A DNA stretch of 27,994 bases, from IMG/VR virus record IMGVR_UViG_3300020044_004165, positions 1-27,994 of that record. One strand, written 5' to 3'. Source of the DNA: a virus (Duplodnaviria; Caudoviricetes). Positions 3-26,638 of the stretch are shown here, in pieces. Positions within the stretch are counted from its first letter, which is position 1. Each line of letters opens with the position of its first letter. The position numbers and the translations under genes were made by a program. The notes under the pieces are model-generated. The model saw only the letters and a list, made by a program, of their open reading frames with translations, ran no database searches and was not told the DNA's origin.

Positions 3-923
3 TTGACTGCGGACGAAGAAAAATCCATGTACGACCGCTCCACTGCTCGTGGCAAGGAAGTCTATGGCGACGTGCTTTCCAAAATCAAAGCGGACATTGA
101 GTCTCAGCGTGGGGGAAGCGCGGAGTCTTTGCGCGAAGGGCGTGGTTTGGCTGCGCTTGAAGCTGCTGCTGCTATGTCCCAAGGTCGTGGCTTTGCCCAA
201 GGTCTTGGTCGTGCCGGTGGCGCGTTTGCTGGGTCCTACGGCAAAGCCCTGCGTGCAGATAAAGAGCAAAAACGCGCTCTGTCCGCTATGGACTTGAGTC
301 TGGCTAAGGCTGAAGCTGACCAGCGTATGGGCCTGCACGATAAAGCAGAAGCGCAAATTGCCAAGGCCAACGCCAGCCGCGAGAAAGCGTATACCGCTGG
401 GGTAACCAAAGACAGGGCAATGGCTGATGTGCTGTCTAAGACCGGTCGCCTCGCTATGCCCCCAGCGCCTACTAAGTCGGGTGAGCCTAAGCCTTTGAAG
501 ATTGCCGAGCAGCTCGCTGCGGCGGAGATCGCGCACGAGACCAAGCCTTCAGAAGCTACGCTAGCAAACGTAACCGCGCTGCGCCGTGCTATGGACCGAG
601 CCAGAACTTCTGACTTTGGCCCAACTCGTGCGGGTCTGGGTGAGGCTAATTTGGATGTGAGACTGGGAGATGCCATCAACGCCGCGCAGGCGAAGCTGAA
701 GTTCACACCCGACTACGTCAAAGCTGACCCAGCTAAGAAAGCCCAGATGATGCGGGACGAAGCGGCTAAGGTTCGCGCAAATGCGGGTAAGGACGCAGGC
801 GTAAACAGTAATTCGACATCGGGTACGGGATCGGGTACAGTCGAGGGACTGCCTGCGGGTGCTACCGTAAAAGGCGATAAGGTCTACGACTCAAGTGGCA
901 AACTAATCGGACACGTAAAATGA
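3..923 (+). CDS. Putative internal virion (DNA ejection) protein, 5'-truncated
   Basis: ORF open from the window edge. Ala/Gly/Lys-rich helical sequence with Gly-rich stretches (GRGFAQGLGRAGGAFAG). Its stop overlaps the start of the giant gene (AAAATGA). Confidence 0.6.
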   Translation: MTADEEKSMYDRSTARGKEVYGDVLSKIKADIESQRGGSAESLREGRGLAALEAAAAMSQGRGFAQGLGRAGGAFAGSYGKALRADKEQKRALSAMDLSLAKAEADQRMGLHDKAEAQIAKANASREKAYTAGVTKDRAMADVLSKTGRLAMPPAPTKSGEPKPLKIAEQLAAAEIAHETKPSEATLANVTALRRAMDRARTSDFGPTRAGLGEANLDVRLGDAINAAQAKLKFTPDYVKADPAKKAQMMRDEAAKVRANAGKDAGVNSNSTSGTGSGTVEGLPAGATVKGDKVYDSSGKLIGHVK

Positions 924-3900
924 AATTTGTTCCCCTCTCTGAATCAGCAAAAACCGAAACAGAAGAGGGGGCCAAAACCCTTCGATTTGTACCGTTAGAG
1001 CCCGCTGCCCCGCAAGAAAGTAAGGCTGCGCCTTTTGGCCCAACTTCTGGGCTCGTAGACTTCATAAACAAGCCTACCCCCAAGCCAGAAAGCGTGCTTG
1101 AAGGGCAGCAGATGCCCGGTCCACTGCCGACCGAGGACAAAATGATCCGCCCCGAGTTTGTTTCCGGTTTGGAAGCACAACTCAACGCAATGCCGGAAGC
1201 CAAGCGCAGCGCAGCGCTTGAGAAAATGCTCCAACGCCCAGACGTTTACGGGCGTGCGGCCAAAGTAATCCAAGGTCGGTATGCGGCTAGAGACAAGGTT
1301 CAGCCCACCTCGCTCCAAAACTTGACCGACTTGCGTCTGGAGCAGCAGCAAAAACGGTTTATGCAGCAGGGCATGGAGCCAACGGCTGCCCTCAACCTCG
1401 CACGACAGCAAGCCCAACAGGGTGTTGCCCGCCCCGATCTTCAGCAGATGACCCGGGACGTTGACGGCGAACTCGCCGATCAAGAAGCAGCTCAGATGCG
1501 CGAGAACCTCAAAGACTCCGGGTTCCTCGGGCGCGTGGGTGCGGAAACTAAGGTGCAGTACACACAGGCTGGGCTCGGCTTGATGAACGTCTTCGCCGAC
1601 ATCACCGGCGACGAGCAGATGCAGCGGAACATAGCCAGAACTCGGAATATGGTCGAGGCTGGCCGGGAAGCCATTCCCAAGGGCGACACCATTTTTGAAC
1701 GCTCGGCGCAAGGAGCCATTTCGTCCTTAGCGGGGCAAGCTCCCATGATTGCCCTGAGCGTGCTTACCGGTACGGCAGCTCCCGTTCTCTTGCAGGCGGG
1801 TATTCAGCAGTTCGGTGATTCCTACGGCCAAGCCCGAGCTGCGGGCAAATCCCCAGAAGCCGCCGCTGCGCGTGCTATTCCTATGGCTGCTGCGGAGATT
1901 TTCTTCGAGCGGTTTGGTATGGAGAAGGCACTTGCTGGCCTGACCAAGCACGTATCCAAGTACGGGTACGACTCTATCCCCAAGTACGTTGGCCAAGCAG
2001 TCGCGAAAGAAATCCCAGCCGAGATGGCTACTACTGCTACGCAGTACGGTATCGACATCGTTCCCGGGATTGGCCTGAACAAAAACCCCAGCTTGGTTGG
2101 TCTGTACGAGCAGCTGGAAGAGACACTGCGCCAGACGATCATCCAAGCTGGGGTGCAGGCAGGCACAACTATCGGGGCTGTAAAAGGCGTCCAGAAACTG
2201 TCGAAAGCTCTGCAGGCTAGCGCCCCCAAGTATGAGCGCCCCGATGACACGGGGTACTACCAAGCCCTGCTTGCAGCAAAGGAAAAAGGGTTCTTGGTTT
2301 CCGAGCGCCGCAATCAAATGGTGCCCCCCGGGCAAACTGCTGGAGCCCCATCCACCGATGGTACCCTCACTGATGAGGGTAGCATACCAAAACAAGATCA
2401 GTTGGCTGATCTTACTGCTGAGATCGAGGCCACAGGCATCCCTGCGGACGACGCACGGGCGCAAGCCGAGCAAATGCTCGCCGCTCAGGAAGCTGAAAAG
2501 CGTAAGGCTCTGGCCCCTCGCATCATCGAGTTGACCCGCGAGTTTGTTGATGGCGGTATGGACCCTCAGCAAGCCAACCAAATAGCCATTCAACAAGCCA
2601 CTGAGGAGGCACAAGCAGATGAACAAGCCCAACTCGAAGGTGCTGTCGGTAGCGCACCAACTGTCAGTACCGCAGATCGAACAGGCGCTGGAGTGGCTGG
2701 ACAGCCCGGTGGCGTCACCGCCCCCGGAGGAGCTGGAGTCACTCAGCCAAGTGGAGTGGTTCCAACTGGACAGACTGCTGCAGGCACTGTGGCGGGAGAA
2801 GGCGGGCAGCCCGGTGCATTGAGGATAAAGAAGAACGAAAAAACTGGTGCCGTAACAACTACGTACGCAGTGCAGGACGAGGACGGCAACCCCTCAGAGC
2901 TTAGCATCGTACGAAACGCCGACGGTTCAGTGTTTCGTGTGTTTGACAAAGTCACACGAGATGACGGCAAAACAATGCAGGTTGAGCTGGACAACAGCTA
3001 TGGTCAGGGGGTTGATAACGCAAAGATCATCTCGCAGTCCAACCGTACCCCTATCGAAGCACCCAAGGCCAAGCGTGGCCGACCCGCTGTTCTGACCGAG
3101 GAAGAAAAGCAGCAGCGTGCCGAAGGTAAAAAGCCCGTGCAGGCTGCGAAGGCCAAGGCCGAGCGTTCAATCCTCCGGCTGACAAACAAGCTGGACGAGC
3201 TGGCTACGCTGCCCGATGAAGGTGACTTCGAGACGGACGAAGATTACGAAGCAGCCCTTGCCGACCACCGAGCCGAGCGCCGCGAGACGATCAAGTCTTT
3301 GTTGCAGTTGCAGGCCGATCCCCTGCTTCGGGGTACTAAGGTAGGTGAGCGCGTCAAAGTTGCGCTGGCCCGCCCTGACATCTCCGAGAAGGAAAAAGCT
3401 GATCTCAAAGCAGGTATCGAGGCGCAAAAGCGTGCACAAGCTGCGATCCAAGGTGACCGACCAAGTTCTTCTCGCGTGACCAAGGGCACGCCCGACACTA
3501 CGTTTGGCAAGTTCACCAACGGTGTCCAAGCCCTGAATCACATTATCAAGACGGGCAACGACTTCCAAAAGGCGCTCGGCAAGCGCCTGCGCAGCTTTGT
3601 AACCAACGTGAAGTTTGTGGTTATCGAAGAAGGTCAAGAGCTGCCAGCTCAACTCAAGTCGGCAAAAAACGCTCGCCACTGGGATCGTTCTATTGCGCTA
3701 TACATCGAGAACTACAACACGGGTGACCGTGTCATCTATGTGCGCGGCGCATCCTTTGGCGAGAACCAAGGCGTCAACAACCTGACCATCCTGCACGAGC
3801 TGCTGCACGCGGCCACCAACCGCAAGATTGTTCTGGCTATCGAAGCAATCAAGAAGGGGGTCAGCCTCAACTCGCCGCTGGTGCGTTCTGCAACCGACTT

Positions 3901-6900
3901 GCTCCGCACAATGAACAGTGCCATCAGCACGTTCAACGACCTGTCGGCTAGACGGCAGCTGCCCGAATACATCTCCCTGCTTGCTGACCGTGGCGAGGTC
4001 TTGGAAGACCCCCGCGAGTTCATTGCGTACGGCATGACCGACCCAGAGTTTCAGCAGTTCTTGATGAAGGCCCAAGGCTACGAGGAAGACACTTCGTACT
4101 TCAACCGCTTTGTGCGCGGTATCCGTGAGCTGTTCGGCATGGGTGACGACACCACCAACGCTCTGACCGACTTGATTGTCGTGACCGACACCATTTTGAG
4201 CACCCGTGCCCCTCAGTACCAAGCTCGTGGGGAGCAAGCCAGCAGCACGTTCTTTGGGTTTGGCAAGAAAGAAGAGCCGAAGGCTGATACGCCCATGGCT
4301 GGTACGACGGAGGTCAAGGCTCGCCCCAGTGCCAACGTGCAGCGTCTGGCCAAGATGCTCGGCTCCAAGCTGTACGGCACGCCCAAAGACATCGCTGTGG
4401 TCTCGATCAAAGAGTTGTTCCAAAACTCCTTCGACGCCATCAAGGGCTCGCTGGAGCAAGGGCAGCTGACCAAGGGCAAGGTCGATGTAAAGATTGACGC
4501 TGGCAATCGCTCTATCCGTGTCGTGGACAACGGCCTTGGTATGCCGACCAGCGTGATGGGCAATCAGTTCTTGCAGATTGCTGGTACTGTCAAAGAGACA
4601 AAGCGTGCGTCCGGCGGTCTCGGCGTTGCCAAGATGCTGTTCCTGTTCGAGAACAAAGCCCTTGAGGTTGTGTCGCTGCGCGATGGTGTGATCTCCCGCA
4701 TGGTCACCAACGGTGATGACTTGAAGGCCGCACTGGATGACCCAAGCCGAGCACCAAACATCGAAGTCACTGAAGACCCCGCTGTTGTGCAGCGCTACGT
4801 TGATTCTTTGTTCCCCGATGGCCACGGCACTGCGGTGACTGTGACAATCCCCGATACGTTCACCAACGAATCTACTGGCGAGCAGGAGAAGATCAACTTC
4901 GATGTATGGGACCTCAAGAACGCTCCCGTGTTGGAGTACAGCCCATTGTTTGGCGACATCGACGTAACTGTTGACTACGGGTACGGCCAGAACCCACTGC
5001 CGATCGGTTCAAACTTCCCGACTAACGACTACACCCCCTTTGCAAATGTCAACTTTGCGTGGGGCACTGCGCGTATCTACGTATCCAAAGAGAAAGTGGA
5101 CAACTGGAGGGATAATACCCATGTGCTGTCCAACGGCCTGTGGCAGTTCAACACTGCGATCAAGGATCGTCCCGGCTTTAGCGGCAAGAACATCAAGCGC
5201 ACTTTCTATGTGGATGTGACCCCCGCCGAGAACGTCAGACCAGAGGATGCGGGGTACCCCTTTGACTTGAACCGCCAGAACTTCTCCAAGGCGGCTAAGG
5301 AAGACTTCGGCAAAATCTTCAACTACATCACCGCCATTTACAGCCAGCTCGATCTAGCTTCGGGCGTCAAAAACTTTGGCACGGTGCAGTACGTCAACGC
5401 TGATGGTTCGGTGACTGAGGCAAAAGCACTGGAGCCAACCGCTCCTCCTAGCGATAACGCGTTCACGCTGATCAAGCCCGGCGACCAAGTTGAAGTGCGT
5501 GACGGCGTGCTGTACGTCAACAACCGCGCACTGCCAGAGTTGACCGCTAAAGACTTGGAGAACACCAGCATCCGCATCGACGAGTTGACTATCCCGCAGA
5601 ACGAGATTGACTCGACCAAGGTCATGATCCATGACAATACCGAGACGCAGGTAAGGACTGTGACCGAAGCGGATGCGAAAAAAGCGCTTGATGATCTGGT
5701 GGCAAGTGACCCCGAAAGATACGAGATAGTTGATCTCGGCAACGGGCGCTTTTGGATGAGCGTGTACGGCACCATAAGTGTACACGGCCCCGGCAGGACT
5801 AAGATTGTTGACTATTCTGGCGTCCCCTCAAAAATTTTTGAGTGGGCGACTATGAACGATATACCTGTGCAAGCTCCTACGGGCACGCCTCAGTCTTTGT
5901 CCGACCTTGCACGCGCCAAGTTTGGTGCCGAGCGGGTCAACAAATACTTCGCAGCCATTGGTGAGACGTTTCACTTGCTGCGTGATGCTCTTATCTCCGT
6001 CGATAGTTCATACGCTGATATGTCTACACAGGCTTTCGGCATCAGTATCGACAACGAGTACTACGGTGTCAGCATCATGGTGCCCTTCAAGGGCATGTTC
6101 ATCAACCCGGCAACCACAGCTCTGAGCGATACCCCTGCGCAAATTGCCGTATCCATGATCGGCACGATGATTCACGAGATGGCGCACTTCCGTCAGCGCA
6201 ACCACGGTGGCAGTTTTGCGTCTGAGATGCAGAAGATCGCGACGCTGCTTGACACTCATCCGTCGTTTGATTTACAACAGGCCAAAAAAGACCTGACCAA
6301 AGTCGTCGATGCCAATGATGGCATCTTTATATTCATGAACAAGGAGTTCCGTGATGGAAATCTCAAGCCTCGTGGCAACCGCTTCGCGGACGCTAGCTAC
6401 CAACAAATCGGAGATGAAGGCGCTTCTGAGCCAATGGAAGGCGAACGCGCAGAAGGACAAGGAGGACCCAGCGTACCAGAACAGCTTGGAGCAAGCGCTC
6501 AAAGTACTGGACAAGTCGGCCAGCCTGCCGGAGCTGGTGGCCAAACTCCAGCGGTTGGAAACGCAGTCCGTACCCAGCAACAGCTGAACCGTGCGGTAAA
6601 AGTAGCAAACGCTAAATTTGAAGAGTCCCAGAACGGGCAGGAGTATTCTAAAGCCTTGTCGTTGCTTCAGATGATGCAGGACCCCCGTAAGGTAATCCCG
6701 GCTATCCGTGACCTTTACGCCCGCATGAACCTCGGTGCACGCTCAGCTTTGACTCGCGTGCTGACAAACGACTTCATAGTGGAACTAACCGGGCAAGATG
6801 TCCCCGAGCTGCGCAACACCCACAAGTTGATGCAGCAAATGAGTGGCATGACTGAGACGCTTCTCAAGGGCGCGGGTGATCTGACCAACGACATTTCTCG

Positions 6901-9499
6901 TGCGTTCCGTAAGGACCCAACCCTGCGCGAAAAGCTAGACAAGATCACGCACATGGCTACTCTTGCCGAGTACGACCCAGCGGACAAGTCCCAGACTGTT
7001 CGGAACAAAAACCTCGACGCGCAATACGATGCGCTTGGCCCAGAAGGTCAGCGCATCTACAACCGTATCAAGCGCCACTTTGAAATCTTGTCGAACACCT
7101 TCTCCAAGTTGCTCGATGACCAGATCACACAGTCGGGCCTGCCGATGGCGGAGCAGGCCAACCTGATCAAGAAGATCAGGGCGATGTACGAGACTGGTAG
7201 CAAGATCACTCCCTACTTCCCACTGGTGCGCCGTGGAGATTTTTGGTTGTCGATCGGCACAGGTGAGACTCGCAAGTTCTTCATGTTTGAGAGCATGGGC
7301 GAGCGTGACCGTGCAATGCAAGGGTTTGCCGACGAGAAAGTAAAGCAGAAGCCCGGTGAGTCGGATGCCGCGTTCCAGAAGCGCCGCGACCGCAACTTAC
7401 AAGACCTGCTGGAGTCAGAAAACTTTGTGTACGGCAACGACATCAGTGCCTTGCGCAAAACCACAGTTGGCAACAGCCAGCTTCTGTCCGGCGTGTTTGC
7501 TGAGATTGACAAGACTGGGGTCAAGACTGACTTCACCCCAGAAGCCAAAGAGCAGCTCAAGGATGCGGTGTACCAGCTGTACTTGCAGACAATGCCAGAG
7601 CAGAGTTTCCGCAAGCAGTTCATTCACCGTAAGGGCTTCGCTGGTTTCCGCACTGACTTGCTGCGCAACGTGGCCGACACGACCACCAAGATGGCGACTC
7701 AGCTTTCTCGGATCAAGTACGCCCCTCTGCTGCGCAACTCGTTGTCTCAGGCGCGTGACTCGATCAAGAACCGCCCAATGTACGAGCCCTACGTTGCTAC
7801 CTTCGAGCGGCGTGTGTCTGACGCATTGACGGCGGGTAAGCCATCTTTGGCCGAGAGCATCGCGGCGGGGCTCAACAAGTTCTCGTTCATCTTCTATCTG
7901 GGGGGTATCTCCTCGGCTGTGCTTCAGCCGTTGAGCTTGTTCCAGACTGGCATCCCCGTGCTCACAAAGTATGGTGTCGGTAACGCCTACGCCGAGATGG
8001 GCAACATGCTCAAAGTGTGGCAAGAATATGGCGTGATGAAGAAGAATGCTGACGGTACCTTCTCTTGGGCACCTCCATCTATTGAAAACGTCACCCGCAG
8101 TGGAGACGAGCGCCGCGCTATCAAGGACATGCTGGGCCGTGATCTCACCACTTCCACCTACGCACGCGATGCGCTGGACTACAAGGCTACGCCGACTGAT
8201 GCCATCCCGTCACCCACGGCACAGTTTGGTAAGGATACCGTCAGCGCGTTGGTGCTCGGCGGGTTGATGCACTCGACTGAGCGTATGTCTCGTGAGGCCA
8301 TGTTCCTTGCAGCGTACCGACTGAACCGCAAAGCGGGTCGAGACCATGAGACTTCGGTGGACAACGCTGTCTACGACACCAATGAAGCCCTTGGTAACTA
8401 CGGCCAGTACAACCGCCCCGACTTTATGAAGGGCGCTCCGGGCAGAGTTCTTACGCAGTTCATGATGTACCCTGTGTACATGACATTGTTCTTGGGTAGA
8501 AACTTTGTCGAGATGATCAAACCAATGAACGGGCGCACTCGGTGGGAAGCGTCTAAGAAGTTCTTCGGCACTATGGGGCACACATGGGTGCTCGGCGGCG
8601 CGGTTGGCCTGTGGGGTTTCAGCACAGTCATGGGCTTCCTTGGCGCGATGTGGAACTCCCTCAAGGATGACGAGTGGCCAGAGGATGTGAAGAGCATGAG
8701 CTACGAGTTGTGGTGGCGCACCGTCTGGCTCAAGGAGCAGCTTGGTGGTACTCAAGTTGCTGGATACGATCTCGCCGACGTGGTTGAGCGCGGCCCTGTC
8801 AACGCCATCACAGGTGTGGACATCTCCAGCCGTACGAGCTTGAACAACATGTGGCTGCGCGAAACCAAAGAGACCGCAACCACACGCGAAAGTGCTCTGG
8901 CTCTGGCAGTGGAGAAAGCTGGCCCAACAGCCAACATGATCTTGTCACAGCTCGATGCCTACGATGCGTTCATGCAAGGGGACTACAAGAAGGGTGTCCT
9001 CAAAGCCGCCCCTGCTGGTTTCCGCAACTGGATCAACGCGGCTAACTATTACAAGGAAGGCGCGAAGGACAACAAGGGTGCGGAGATTCTGTCCCGCGAT
9101 GCCTTCACCACGGGTGAACTGATCTTCCAAGCTGTCGGCTTCCGCTCAGACCTGCTTGCGAATACACAGTACGTGACCTTCAAAGTGATCGGCCTTGAGC
9201 AAAAGATTCTGAATGAGCGCACCAAGATCATGAATCAGATTGATCGTGCGTACCGGCAGGGGGACTTCGACGCCTACACCGACTACTACGAGGATATGCA
9301 GAAGTTCAACACCAAGTACCCTACGTACGAGATCACGACCGACAACCTTGTGGACTCGTTGGAGCGCAAGCAGGAGCAGCGTGGCAAGTCTTTCCGGGGC
9401 ATTACGTTGACCGAGAAGAACGTGGGGCCATTTGCAGAGACGTTGCTTCCATCCCGGATTGCGGCAGACAAGCGGGAAGAAAAGAACCGCCAAAAATAA
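920..9499 (+). CDS. Large polyvalent / giant internal virion protein (2859 aa): HExxH metallopeptidase, GHKL ATPase, WLM/YgjP-like peptidase, PLxRFG-like C-terminal region
   Basis: Single 8.6-kb ORF, last gene of the + strand block. Motifs: ILHELLHAA (~3794-3808) with downstream EFIAYG; KELFQNSFDA, VVDNGLGM, GGLGVAK, DGHGTAV (4400-4840); IHEMAHFRQRNHGGSF (~6170-6220); YFPLVRRGDF (~7214-7243); hydrophobic Gly-rich segment near 8585-8655. Confidence 0.85.
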   Translation: MKFVPLSESAKTETEEGAKTLRFVPLEPAAPQESKAAPFGPTSGLVDFINKPTPKPESVLEGQQMPGPLPTEDKMIRPEFVSGLEAQLNAMPEAKRSAALEKMLQRPDVYGRAAKVIQGRYAARDKVQPTSLQNLTDLRLEQQQKRFMQQGMEPTAALNLARQQAQQGVARPDLQQMTRDVDGELADQEAAQMRENLKDSGFLGRVGAETKVQYTQAGLGLMNVFADITGDEQMQRNIARTRNMVEAGREAIPKGDTIFERSAQGAISSLAGQAPMIALSVLTGTAAPVLLQAGIQQFGDSYGQARAAGKSPEAAAARAIPMAAAEIFFERFGMEKALAGLTKHVSKYGYDSIPKYVGQAVAKEIPAEMATTATQYGIDIVPGIGLNKNPSLVGLYEQLEETLRQTIIQAGVQAGTTIGAVKGVQKLSKALQASAPKYERPDDTGYYQALLAAKEKGFLVSERRNQMVPPGQTAGAPSTDGTLTDEGSIPKQDQLADLTAEIEATGIPADDARAQAEQMLAAQEAEKRKALAPRIIELTREFVDGGMDPQQANQIAIQQATEEAQADEQAQLEGAVGSAPTVSTADRTGAGVAGQPGGVTAPGGAGVTQPSGVVPTGQTAAGTVAGEGGQPGALRIKKNEKTGAVTTTYAVQDEDGNPSELSIVRNADGSVFRVFDKVTRDDGKTMQVELDNSYGQGVDNAKIISQSNRTPIEAPKAKRGRPAVLTEEEKQQRAEGKKPVQAAKAKAERSILRLTNKLDELATLPDEGDFETDEDYEAALADHRAERRETIKSLLQLQADPLLRGTKVGERVKVALARPDISEKEKADLKAGIEAQKRAQAAIQGDRPSSSRVTKGTPDTTFGKFTNGVQALNHIIKTGNDFQKALGKRLRSFVTNVKFVVIEEGQELPAQLKSAKNARHWDRSIALYIENYNTGDRVIYVRGASFGENQGVNNLTILHELLHAATNRKIVLAIEAIKKGVSLNSPLVRSATDLLRTMNSAISTFNDLSARRQLPEYISLLADRGEVLEDPREFIAYGMTDPEFQQFLMKAQGYEEDTSYFNRFVRGIRELFGMGDDTTNALTDLIVVTDTILSTRAPQYQARGEQASSTFFGFGKKEEPKADTPMAGTTEVKARPSANVQRLAKMLGSKLYGTPKDIAVVSIKELFQNSFDAIKGSLEQGQLTKGKVDVKIDAGNRSIRVVDNGLGMPTSVMGNQFLQIAGTVKETKRASGGLGVAKMLFLFENKALEVVSLRDGVISRMVTNGDDLKAALDDPSRAPNIEVTEDPAVVQRYVDSLFPDGHGTAVTVTIPDTFTNESTGEQEKINFDVWDLKNAPVLEYSPLFGDIDVTVDYGYGQNPLPIGSNFPTNDYTPFANVNFAWGTARIYVSKEKVDNWRDNTHVLSNGLWQFNTAIKDRPGFSGKNIKRTFYVDVTPAENVRPEDAGYPFDLNRQNFSKAAKEDFGKIFNYITAIYSQLDLASGVKNFGTVQYVNADGSVTEAKALEPTAPPSDNAFTLIKPGDQVEVRDGVLYVNNRALPELTAKDLENTSIRIDELTIPQNEIDSTKVMIHDNTETQVRTVTEADAKKALDDLVASDPERYEIVDLGNGRFWMSVYGTISVHGPGRTKIVDYSGVPSKIFEWATMNDIPVQAPTGTPQSLSDLARAKFGAERVNKYFAAIGETFHLLRDALISVDSSYADMSTQAFGISIDNEYYGVSIMVPFKGMFINPATTALSDTPAQIAVSMIGTMIHEMAHFRQRNHGGSFASEMQKIATLLDTHPSFDLQQAKKDLTKVVDANDGIFIFMNKEFRDGNLKPRGNRFADASYQQIGDEGASEPMEGERAEGQGGPSVPEQLGASAQSTGQVGQPAGAGGQTPAVGNAVRTQQQLNRAVKVANAKFEESQNGQEYSKALSLLQMMQDPRKVIPAIRDLYARMNLGARSALTRVLTNDFIVELTGQDVPELRNTHKLMQQMSGMTETLLKGAGDLTNDISRAFRKDPTLREKLDKITHMATLAEYDPADKSQTVRNKNLDAQYDALGPEGQRIYNRIKRHFEILSNTFSKLLDDQITQSGLPMAEQANLIKKIRAMYETGSKITPYFPLVRRGDFWLSIGTGETRKFFMFESMGERDRAMQGFADEKVKQKPGESDAAFQKRRDRNLQDLLESENFVYGNDISALRKTTVGNSQLLSGVFAEIDKTGVKTDFTPEAKEQLKDAVYQLYLQTMPEQSFRKQFIHRKGFAGFRTDLLRNVADTTTKMATQLSRIKYAPLLRNSLSQARDSIKNRPMYEPYVATFERRVSDALTAGKPSLAESIAAGLNKFSFIFYLGGISSAVLQPLSLFQTGIPVLTKYGVGNAYAEMGNMLKVWQEYGVMKKNADGTFSWAPPSIENVTRSGDERRAIKDMLGRDLTTSTYARDALDYKATPTDAIPSPTAQFGKDTVSALVLGGLMHSTERMSREAMFLAAYRLNRKAGRDHETSVDNAVYDTNEALGNYGQYNRPDFMKGAPGRVLTQFMMYPVYMTLFLGRNFVEMIKPMNGRTRWEASKKFFGTMGHTWVLGGAVGLWGFSTVMGFLGAMWNSLKDDEWPEDVKSMSYELWWRTVWLKEQLGGTQVAGYDLADVVERGPVNAITGVDISSRTSLNNMWLRETKETATTRESALALAVEKAGPTANMILSQLDAYDAFMQGDYKKGVLKAAPAGFRNWINAANYYKEGAKDNKGAEILSRDAFTTGELIFQAVGFRSDLLANTQYVTFKVIGLEQKILNERTKIMNQIDRAYRQGDFDAYTDYYEDMQKFNTKYPTYEITTDNLVDSLERKQEQRGKSFRGITLTEKNVGPFAETLLPSRIAADKREEKNRQK
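2619..2822 (+). CDS. Putative overprinted small helical protein (67 aa) in the +1 frame of the giant gene
   Basis: GAGGAGG at 2603-2609, 9 nt before the ATG at 2619. Product looks amphipathic (VPQIEQALEWLD...LSQVEWFQLDRLLQALWREK). ORF limits match a G/A/P/T/Q linker in the main frame. Confidence 0.6.
   Translation: MNKPNSKVLSVAHQLSVPQIEQALEWLDSPVASPPPEELESLSQVEWFQLDRLLQALWREKAGSPVH
6354..6587 (+). CDS. Putative overprinted small helical protein (77 aa) in the +1 frame of the giant gene
   Basis: AAGGAG at 6341-6346, 7 nt before the ATG at 6354 (GTG at 6351 is in frame). Amphipathic helices (EMKALLSQWKANA, YQNSLEQALKVLD, LPELVAKLQRL). Coincides with a G/Q/P/E linker in the main frame. Confidence 0.6.
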   Translation: MEISSLVATASRTLATNKSEMKALLSQWKANAQKDKEDPAYQNSLEQALKVLDKSASLPELVAKLQRLETQSVPSNS

Positions 9500-25432: not shown

Positions 25433-26638
25433 TCAGTCTTTGATGTGAATCGTTTTGCCATTCGGTGCCACGTCAGTGTTGCCACCCACGATCACCCACA
25501 GCACTTGGGCTGGCCAGTCATTACCCCAGTCACTACCAACGTACCCGTCAGTGAGCATGATCACGCACTCTGGCTTGATCTTGTTGTCGTTCAGGTACGT
25601 TGATACACAGCTTGGGCTTGTGCCCCCGCCACCTTTCGGTTGGGTAGAGGTAACAATGTTGCCCACGTCATGCTCGGTGTACTCCTCGTGCCCTGCGACA
25701 CGCCCGTCCCAATACAGTAGATCGACCTTCTCGGGCTTGACTTCCTCGGCGATGCCCTTGACCTCGGACAAGAACTCGGCCAGCTCCTTGCCGCCTACCG
25801 ATCCTGACGTATCCACACCAACAACCAAGTGGCCAACTTTCTCGCCAATCATGGACGGCATATACACACCCGTACTCAGGAACCTACGGTTGACCCTGCG
25901 CCAGCTCGATGTGTCCTTGGCACTGCACGTAGCCTTGACAAACTCACGCAGCACTTCGCGCCAGTCAACTTTGGGCTCAAGTAGTTGCTCCAGCTCACGG
26001 TTCGATAGACCAGTTCCCTTACCTGCTACCTTCTCATGCGCCATGAGGCCCTGACGGATCGCTTGGTCAATGTCGCGCTCAAGCTCCTTGGCTTCCTCGG
26101 GGGTCAAGCCATTGGCCTCGGCCCAGTCGTGAATGTCCATGCCGCCTTCACCGTCACCGTCACCGCCGCCGTTCTCCTCTTTCTCCTGCTTGAGAATGTC
26201 GAACACTTGTTTGGTGTTCATGCCACGGAACCGCTCGTCACACAGGCCCATCGGCTTACCCTTCATCGGGCCATCGCGATAGATCGGCATGGCGATCGTT
26301 TTGTTGCCGGGGTCCAAGTCCTTGAGCATCAGGTTGATCACGTAGTCCATCGCGTTGTTGGCGAGTCGTGCGTCAATCTCGTGCAGTCGCTTCCACGTAG
26401 TCAGGTGCCGGTACATCTTGTGCCCTGCCTCGTGAGCTACAACAAAGTTGAGCTCTGGCTCTTTGAGTGACTGTATGAACTTGCGTCCATACCGCTCGTC
26501 ACGGCCATTGGTGCAAGCCGTTGGGATGTTGTCATCCACCCGTGTGCTACCCACCATCATCACACCAGACAGCAATGCGAACTTGGGGTCGCGCATCAGG
26601 CTGATCTTGGCTTTTTGCAGTTTGCGTTCTTCTAACAT
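25433..26638 (-). CDS. Metallopeptidase-vWA protein (DUF2201-like, MoxR partner)
   Basis: TACTNG, HEAGH (HExxH), N.A.D..IN, MIDAS VDTSGS, GGGGT, LTDGY. Confidence 0.92.
   Translation of the reverse strand: MLEERKLQKAKISLMRDPKFALLSGVMMVGSTRVDDNIPTACTNGRDERYGRKFIQSLKEPELNFVVAHEAGHKMYRHLTTWKRLHEIDARLANNAMDYVINLMLKDLDPGNKTIAMPIYRDGPMKGKPMGLCDERFRGMNTKQVFDILKQEKEENGGGDGDGEGGMDIHDWAEANGLTPEEAKELERDIDQAIRQGLMAHEKVAGKGTGLSNRELEQLLEPKVDWREVLREFVKATCSAKDTSSWRRVNRRFLSTGVYMPSMIGEKVGHLVVGVDTSGSVGGKELAEFLSEVKGIAEEVKPEKVDLLYWDGRVAGHEEYTEHDVGNIVTSTQPKGGGGTSPSCVSTYLNDNKIKPECVIMLTDGYVGSDWGNDWPAQVLWVIVGGNTDVAPNGKTIHIKD

Follow-up and report, generated by a model that had tools for sequence, protein, structure and literature searches.

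The locus and its giant host gene

The window, by which we mean the whole stretch of viral DNA analysed here, comprises 27,994 bases and is given a completeness of 45% by CheckV. Its plus strand carries a gene (920..9499) for a giant polyvalent phage protein of 2859 aa, DarB-like or PLxRFG-type, and it is this gene that houses the nested open reading frames (ORFs) discussed below. Polyvalent proteins, as described in passages of Iyer et al. 2017 (PMC5512222), are giant multidomain phage proteins with zincin-like MPTase domains and LPD39, and the same passages propose that the MPTases process the protein itself or attack host proteins, either before packaging or after injection. The 2859-aa protein is likewise large and multidomain, with an LPD39 match above the cut-off (E 1.4e-10), two HExxH motifs and a GHKL fold. 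Profile matches to HATPase_c and YgjP-like are weak, the former lying below the cut-off. The C-terminal part has a DarB-like PHROG match (phrog_10089, E 2e-56) and 24-26% identity to PLxRFG/DarB-like proteins of cultured phages. By analogy with the polyvalent family, as far as those passages of PMC5512222 describe it, the giant protein would be packaged and then injected with the DNA.

Two neighboring parts of this protein form what we call the cassette. A GHKL ATPase domain of the Hsp90/MutL/MORC type, together with a second cassette domain after it, occupies approximately 4319..5380 (plus strand); the model of the GHKL fold has a pLDDT of 87.8, and Foldseek matches it to HtpG (E 1.6e-12) as well as to TRAP1, MutL, and MORC2, so that it shares the fold of known GHKL ATPases (Hsp90, MutL, MORC). 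It is followed by a zincin-like peptidase domain (Wss1/WLM, YgjP-like) at 5588..6400 (plus strand; the piece serving as chain 1 in the complex prediction below), with a HEMAH motif at 6173..6187 (plus strand; aa 1752-1756) and a third His at aa 1762. The two His and the Glu of the motif, and the third His six residues on, are invariant in all 83 loci compared below. HExxH plus a third His is also what Wss1/WLM and the YgjP-like, minigluzincin-type domains have. The match to Wss1 has an E of 0.021, and at E <= 0.01 a YgjP-like match is found in 65 of the 83 members and a WLM match in 46, but the protein studied here differs from the YgjP-like family in that its score of 19 bits does not reach the Pfam cut-off of 26. 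On these matches, the domain is a putative peptidase. The GHKL and peptidase cassette was found only within large phage-type proteins or their fragments: among proteins of 386-1231 aa there was no free-standing cassette, the 5 matches looking like pieces of giant proteins, and neither the peptidase nor the GHKL part was found in any GenBank phage.

Two other HExxH motifs in the window deserve mention. The first HExxH motif of the giant protein, HELLH at 3794-3808, has no conserved nested ORF behind it, so peptidase-like domains do not all carry one. In the replication/early region, a 401-aa gene on the minus strand (25433-26638) has an HExxH motif and, by eye, a VWA-like C-terminus.

Directly behind the peptidase domain lies ORF2 (6354..6587, plus strand), a nested gene of 77 aa in the +1 frame relative to the gene at 920-9499; its product is predicted to have four helices and to be the partner of the upstream domain. 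The first-pass annotation had proposed an overprinted small gene here, opened by AAGGAG 7 nt before ATG 6354 and running for 77 codons, and all of this can be read off the sequence as claimed. The Shine-Dalgarno sequence (SD) sits at 6341..6346 (plus strand), where the main frame reads Lys-Glu, and a +1-frame stop just 5' of it (6336..6338, plus strand) closes the frame upstream; a GTG in the ORF2 frame occurs at 6351, and the terminator is the TGA at 6585-6587. The counts of a promoter and terminator scan were near those of shuffled sequence (5 vs 3.0 and 18 vs 12.0, respectively), and so we claim no internal promoter.

The core of ORF2 overlies a main-frame linker rich in G, Q, A, and E (approximately 6410..6590, plus strand). 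The earlier statement that ORF2 spans this linker holds for most of its length, the exception being the first ~20 codons, which overlie the conserved end of the peptidase domain. The cluster of particular main-frame codons that had been noted is also there, as an enrichment of codons ending in A (28/78 over ORF2 vs 349/2713 elsewhere in the gene), and the ORF2 region holds the highest 70-codon windows of the gene in this respect. Other +1 ORFs in the giant gene have 67-157 codons, and the SD of ORF2 ranks 4th in strength among 226 alternative starts. Judged from this genome alone, its length and SD are not beyond chance, and the proof of ORF2 therefore rests on comparison.

Conservation of ORF2 across related loci

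Relatives were gathered by the main-frame peptidase, without selection on the small ORF; the viral relatives are the best 80 of 106, and those from metagenomes and genomes are among the matches listed. We examined 120 loci, from which 2 without a profile match (L148 and L150, aminopeptidase-like by eye) and 34 near-duplicates (>95% identity) were dropped. From the remaining 84 we removed L149, an unrelated HExxH protein, which leaves 83 non-redundant loci, namely the viral stretch itself and 82 others. In one contig, L147:1-120 is an exact repeat of the C-terminal piece of ORF2 at the contig start and looks like a misassembly.

Over codons 80-125 past HExxH, the +1 frame is open in 83/83 loci and the +2 frame in 3/83, compared with 636 (14.7%) and 280, respectively, of 4338 background windows of 45 codons from the same genes. 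In 70/83 loci, vs 193/5300 background windows, there is a start codon whose SD energy reaches -5.5 or better and which opens a frame of at least 55 codons. The start is ATG in 62 loci, GTG in 18, and TTG in 3, at the same codon position in 45; the SD core lies 6-9 nt 5' of it in 73/83 loci, although the main-frame residues beneath are variable, and in 65/83 an upstream +1 stop lies at most 9 codons from the start. Weak SDs (-3 to -5) were seen in L012, L074, and L078. The fixed Glu codon at the SD is GAG in 40 loci and GAA in 6, vs 53 and 30 for the catalytic Glu codon, a preference (p 0.007, among related sequences) that appears real but moderate. The first-pass annotation would have taken a lack of conservation of the SD and open +1 frame in cassette-bearing relatives as refutation; both, together with the start, are conserved in these down to ~30% peptidase identity, and its proposal withstands this check.

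The pattern of substitution was followed in the viral stretch and six close relatives (21 non-independent pairs). In the core of the overlap (codons 80-130 past HExxH), pN/pS is 0.21 in the +1 frame and 2.46 in the main frame, whereas the flanks show the reverse (+1 frame, 1.97 and 1.50; main frame, 0.15 and 0.19). Across the first 20 ORF2 codons both frames are constrained (0.39 main, 0.43 +1). In the linker, therefore, the conserved frame is +1 and it is the main frame that drifts. Similarly, a hidden Markov model (HMM) of 10 ORF2 peptides matches the +1 frame in 80/83 loci and no other frame, similarity is higher in +1 than in the main frame in 82/82 comparisons, and for the 46 most distant loci, alignment to the sequence of the window gives a median z of 7.7 for the +1 peptide and 1.2 for the linker.

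For a wider view of nested genes, a composition log-odds filter proved too strict (it kept 57 loci for the ORF2 family) and was replaced by an identity test. Among 487 SD-bearing nested ORFs, +1 identity exceeds main-frame identity only in the ORF2 family (79 loci), ORF1 (44), and three small families; the difference is +0.16 for the ORF2 family and mostly -0.05 to -0.43 for families of shadow ORFs. ORF2 thus has the conserved ribosome-binding site and start of its own, and the open +1 frame under purifying selection, that mark an embedded gene on the same strand and out of frame. On these comparisons it is very probably a real gene nested in the giant phage gene, and its translation is predicted.

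Two readings would do without a separate gene. Long +1 ORFs are common in the giant gene, so the open frame might be an unexpressed by-product of linker composition; this is hardly credible given the reversed pN/pS, the open frame in 83/83 loci, the HMM matches, and +1 identity above that of the main frame. Alternatively, ribosomes might shift into the +1 frame, in which case the product would be a giant protein of reduced length that ends in helices, and no separate protein. SD-like sequences can stimulate +1 shifts, as in prfB, and covalent linkage would likewise set the helices on the peptidase. Frameshifting is nevertheless very improbable: a shared slippery site is not apparent, and there is a conserved start codon, which interchanges between ATG, GTG, and TTG (62, 18, and 3 loci) and moves with the SD at 6-9 nt. 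We therefore continue with ORF2 as a gene in its own right.

Embedded genes on the same strand are familiar from lambda Rz1 in Rz and Bacillus comS in srfAB, and Rz1 partners the product of its host gene. Like these, ORF2 is small, wholly inside a larger gene, out of frame, and has its own start. It differs from Rz1, a lipoprotein in a lysis gene, in its tie to a single mobile domain within a modular protein. We rejected ORF2 as an embedded spanin of the Rz1 type: it has no Cys, there are 3 Cys in 6229 family residues, and its host gene encodes a polyvalent protein.

The giant gene also contains a sister of ORF2. ORF1 (2619..2822, plus strand), a nested +1 gene of 67 aa, is unrelated in sequence to ORF2 and is not behind an HExxH domain. 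It had been put forward in the first-pass annotation as a companion case, and it too behaves as a real gene, being present in 44/83 loci with +1 identity above main-frame identity by 0.17; it also occurs in L014, a locus without the cassette. A third nested +1 family with higher +1 than main-frame identity is found in high-GC relatives (L012:2232 onward, 92 aa; L074:79). In addition, there are short, basic, proline-rich +1 ORFs with the same property (L058:5149, L060:5140, L061:5131, L062:2072, L054, and L072; L124:2074 and L125:2065); these, families 7 and 40, may be real or may be an alignment effect.

The upstream peptidase domain as predicted partner

The GHKL domain lies upstream of ORF2 in 78/83 loci; 4 others are truncated, and one, L146, is without it. 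L146 is missing the ATPase and has kept the peptidase and a nested ORF with a strong SD. When loci were instead found by the small peptide, it was in the +1 frame and directly behind the peptidase in 43/43 locus records (repeated contigs included). The main-frame context 3' of ORF2 falls into 28 clusters, some of them truncated. In L014, cassette and ORF2 are both absent. L178 and L179 are one lineage, 89-99% identical to L177 on either side of a gap of ~2.2 kb that held the cassette, SD, start, and most of ORF2; the main frame is still open, and a 25-codon remnant of ORF2 identifies the event as a deletion. ORF2 is thus directly downstream of the peptidase and co-inherited with it, as in an inhibitor pair. 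This coupling is suggestive of ORF2 belonging to the upstream peptidase domain, and is not proof, because physical overlap alone could yield linkage.

The helices that had been read from the peptide are borne out by the structure model, which gives four (3-13, 18-34, 39-54, and 58-71) at a mean pLDDT of 87. Searches of ORF2 against PHROGs, Pfam, PDB sequences, and folds returned nothing meaningful, and the ESM Atlas gave no usable match: Pfam matches were weak and scattered (best E 0.0015), the best PDB profile match had an E of 0.48, and the best fold match (Z 8.8) is at the level of helical noise. Nor did the Pfam, PDB, and fold searches connect ORF2 with a known inhibitor by sequence or fold; the match to the colicin D inhibitor, at Z 5.2, is within helical noise and was set aside.

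We modelled cassette residues 432-702 with ORF2 in three runs, alongside 3 controls. The ipSAE was 0.83 in the three runs and 0.00 in the best control; the mark used for this score is reached by 116/157 solved complexes and 2/215 mismatched pairs, counts that apply roughly with the alignments used here. The runs share at least 98% of contacts, with a partner pLDDT of 88. In the model, the HExxH helix is lined by residues 1-44 of ORF2, for the most part by helix 2 (19-35). Contacts are made with both HExxH histidines (aa 1752 and 1756), residues 588-591, and the next helix, and the interface has its centre on this next helix and the first, N-terminal half of the HExxH helix. The catalytic Glu is absent from the listed contacts, and the model therefore does not show the cleft to be blocked; many of the peptidase contact positions are variable. 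The predicted contacts show a weak enrichment of covariation (mean z 0.63, p 0.004), with 7 of the 30 highest-ranking pairs falling on them vs 2.5 expected; this signal comes from the same alignments as the model input and is not independent of it. No similar complex was found in PDB searches, so that the model is less likely to have reproduced a solved structure. ORF2 is accordingly predicted by the model to bind the HExxH domain directly, beside the active site.

A comparable gene order is known from operons that pair a protease with its cognate inhibitor or an effector with its immunity protein. Protealysin and emfourin share an operon in which a metallopeptidase gene is followed directly by a small gene whose product binds the protease, according to passages of PMC9505478. 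Binding is shown there and predicted here; the arrangement studied here differs in that the small gene sits inside a linker and the peptidase is one domain within a larger protein.

The explanation that we find the most convincing, and that we hold to be somewhat more probable than all others taken together, is that ORF2 is a conserved nested gene whose product would bind the adjacent HExxH domain and serve as its dedicated inhibitor. The need for an inhibitor would follow from the self-processing or attack on host proteins that passages of PMC5512222 propose for polyvalent MPTases. In the infected cell, ORF2 would be made from the same mRNA alongside the giant protein and would hold the peptidase off, so that the enzyme would neither cleave its own protein too early nor harm the cell that makes it; set free at packaging or injection, it would be active in the next host. 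Nesting in the linker would let an internal domain keep the enzyme-then-inhibitor gene order, and would allow enzyme and nested inhibitor to move as one cassette.

A predicted binder is not necessarily an inhibitor. Bound to the peptidase, ORF2 might instead serve as a chaperone for folding, as an adaptor for packaging, or as an activator. This would suit an interface that covers the HExxH helix in its N-terminal half, with the catalytic Glu unlisted, and the joint loss with the cassette fits it equally well. We consider this unlikely, given that both zinc-ligand histidines are contacted in the model and that there would be little benefit for a host in retaining a phage chaperone within its own enzyme and diversifying it (see below). 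Superinfection exclusion, in which ORF2 would chiefly neutralise the peptidase that competing related phages inject, self-protection being incidental, is decidedly improbable: ORF2 was lost in the same deletion as its own peptidase, and is absent with it from L014, pointing to a need in cis, and its nesting in a presumably late structural gene ties its expression to that gene, against which can be set the free-standing, membrane-anchored homologues among the 105 clusters described below, as expected for interception at the membrane. Slightly less probable again is a function unrelated to the peptidase, with ORF2 linked to the domain only by starting in its last codons. The SD and first 20 codons do overlap the domain end, and ORF1 has no enzyme domain just upstream; yet the predicted complex scores high and its controls zero, and among the loci selected by peptide no phage locus has the ORF without the peptidase (43/43 have both). 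A dedicated inhibitor therefore remains our preferred reading of ORF2.

Homologues outside the nest and the transpeptidase insert

The ORF2 profile matches 105 clusters among 1.84 billion representatives, most of them 48-140 aa in length. By eye, transmembrane segments are apparent at one or other end of about ten homologues, while T5orf172 and a receiver domain are fusion partners in single cases (fusions of these kinds: P0037, P0039, P0040, P0054, P0058, P0065, P0073, P0074, P0097, P0108, P0095, and P0107). Such fused domains are possible orphan antidotes or sensors. For the membrane-fused P0073, no relative was found in viral contigs.

One homologue is a YkuD L,D-transpeptidase, which exists as alleles of 161-162 aa and alleles of 228-231 aa, the latter with an in-frame insert of 67 residues, an ORF2 domain, after residue 22. 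Among the best 120 of 3364 transpeptidase homologues, the domain is present in 84 of the 85 with at least 180 aa and in 0/35 short ones. Source labels are Nitrosomonadales (MDA9642526.1) and Methylophilaceae (MDC6484772.1), on contigs of up to 194,883 bases, and viral contigs match the insert only. The alleles are presumably chromosomal, and a role in defence is putative. The sequences compared were P0038 and P0143-P0221 vs P0132, P0133, and P0141, with phage L177:3992-4204 and L107:8542-8775. P0082 has the same N-terminus, but ends at the phage's own ORF end.

In 87 full-length alleles, the enzyme has a median pairwise identity of 0.89 and the insert one of 0.69. Distinct inserts number 52 and fall into 15 types. 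Best matches of the insert to phages L107/L176 and L177 range from 55 to 94%. Identity to phage of up to 94%, combined with variation far above that of the enzyme, suggests capture of the ORF2 domain by the host transpeptidase. In a quick version of a tree (72 columns), the inserts, L107, and L177 form one clade (SH-aLRT 97) deep among phage sequences, with L107 and L177 in different subclades of it, which is consistent with phage-to-host transfer and repeated exchange. The junction of the insert, DDKY/DNKY in the host, resembles EDNKY in the phage, hinting at capture guided by microhomology.

Insert variation is concentrated in residues 5-44, the predicted binding half (entropy 1.08 vs 0.43), while variation among the phage copies is even (2.01 vs 2.28). 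In the stretch of residues 5-44, the interface positions are no more variable than their neighbors (p 0.19), and mosaic recombination could therefore give the same pattern. Orphan immunity genes and integrated decoys are known cases of a host protein with a variable domain that matches an enemy effector system. The transpeptidase insert is like these in this respect; what sets it apart is that its source would be the hidden gene of the phage and that an L,D-transpeptidase carries it in frame. Bacteria likely took the ORF2 domain because it would neutralise or detect the incoming peptidase. The broadest scenario is one that we offer tentatively, rating it as less than an even chance. Giant injected phage proteins would hide an antidote gene in the linker after an enzyme domain, the two forming a mobile cassette; hosts would steal the antidote gene, place it in frame within a housekeeping enzyme as well as within membrane proteins, and go on refreshing the peptidase-binding half by recombination with new phage variants, as a defence.

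Each ingredient has been described before: genes embedded in others, gene pairs for an enzyme and its inhibitor, and polyvalent proteins. In the open-licence literature, as covered by titles and the beginnings of abstracts, there is no description of nested partners of polyvalent-protein domains or of their capture by hosts. The main text of PMC5512222 has 0 matches for "overlap" or "HSP90", and nested genes and cognate inhibitors are absent from the passages of that paper considered here.

For phage biology, ORF2 offers a testable answer to how phages keep injected polyvalent proteins enzymatically quiet inside the cell that produces them. It is a predicted small binder for a new GHKL-Wss1-like cassette and explains the low-complexity look of some polyvalent-protein linkers as the by-product of another gene, while also supplying a rule by which further nested genes missed by annotation could be matched with their partners. 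In addition, the insert of the L,D-transpeptidase labelled as bacterial is variable, a sign of an arms race over the ORF2 domain, and suggests a screen in which host proteins with captured phage nested domains would be candidate defence factors.
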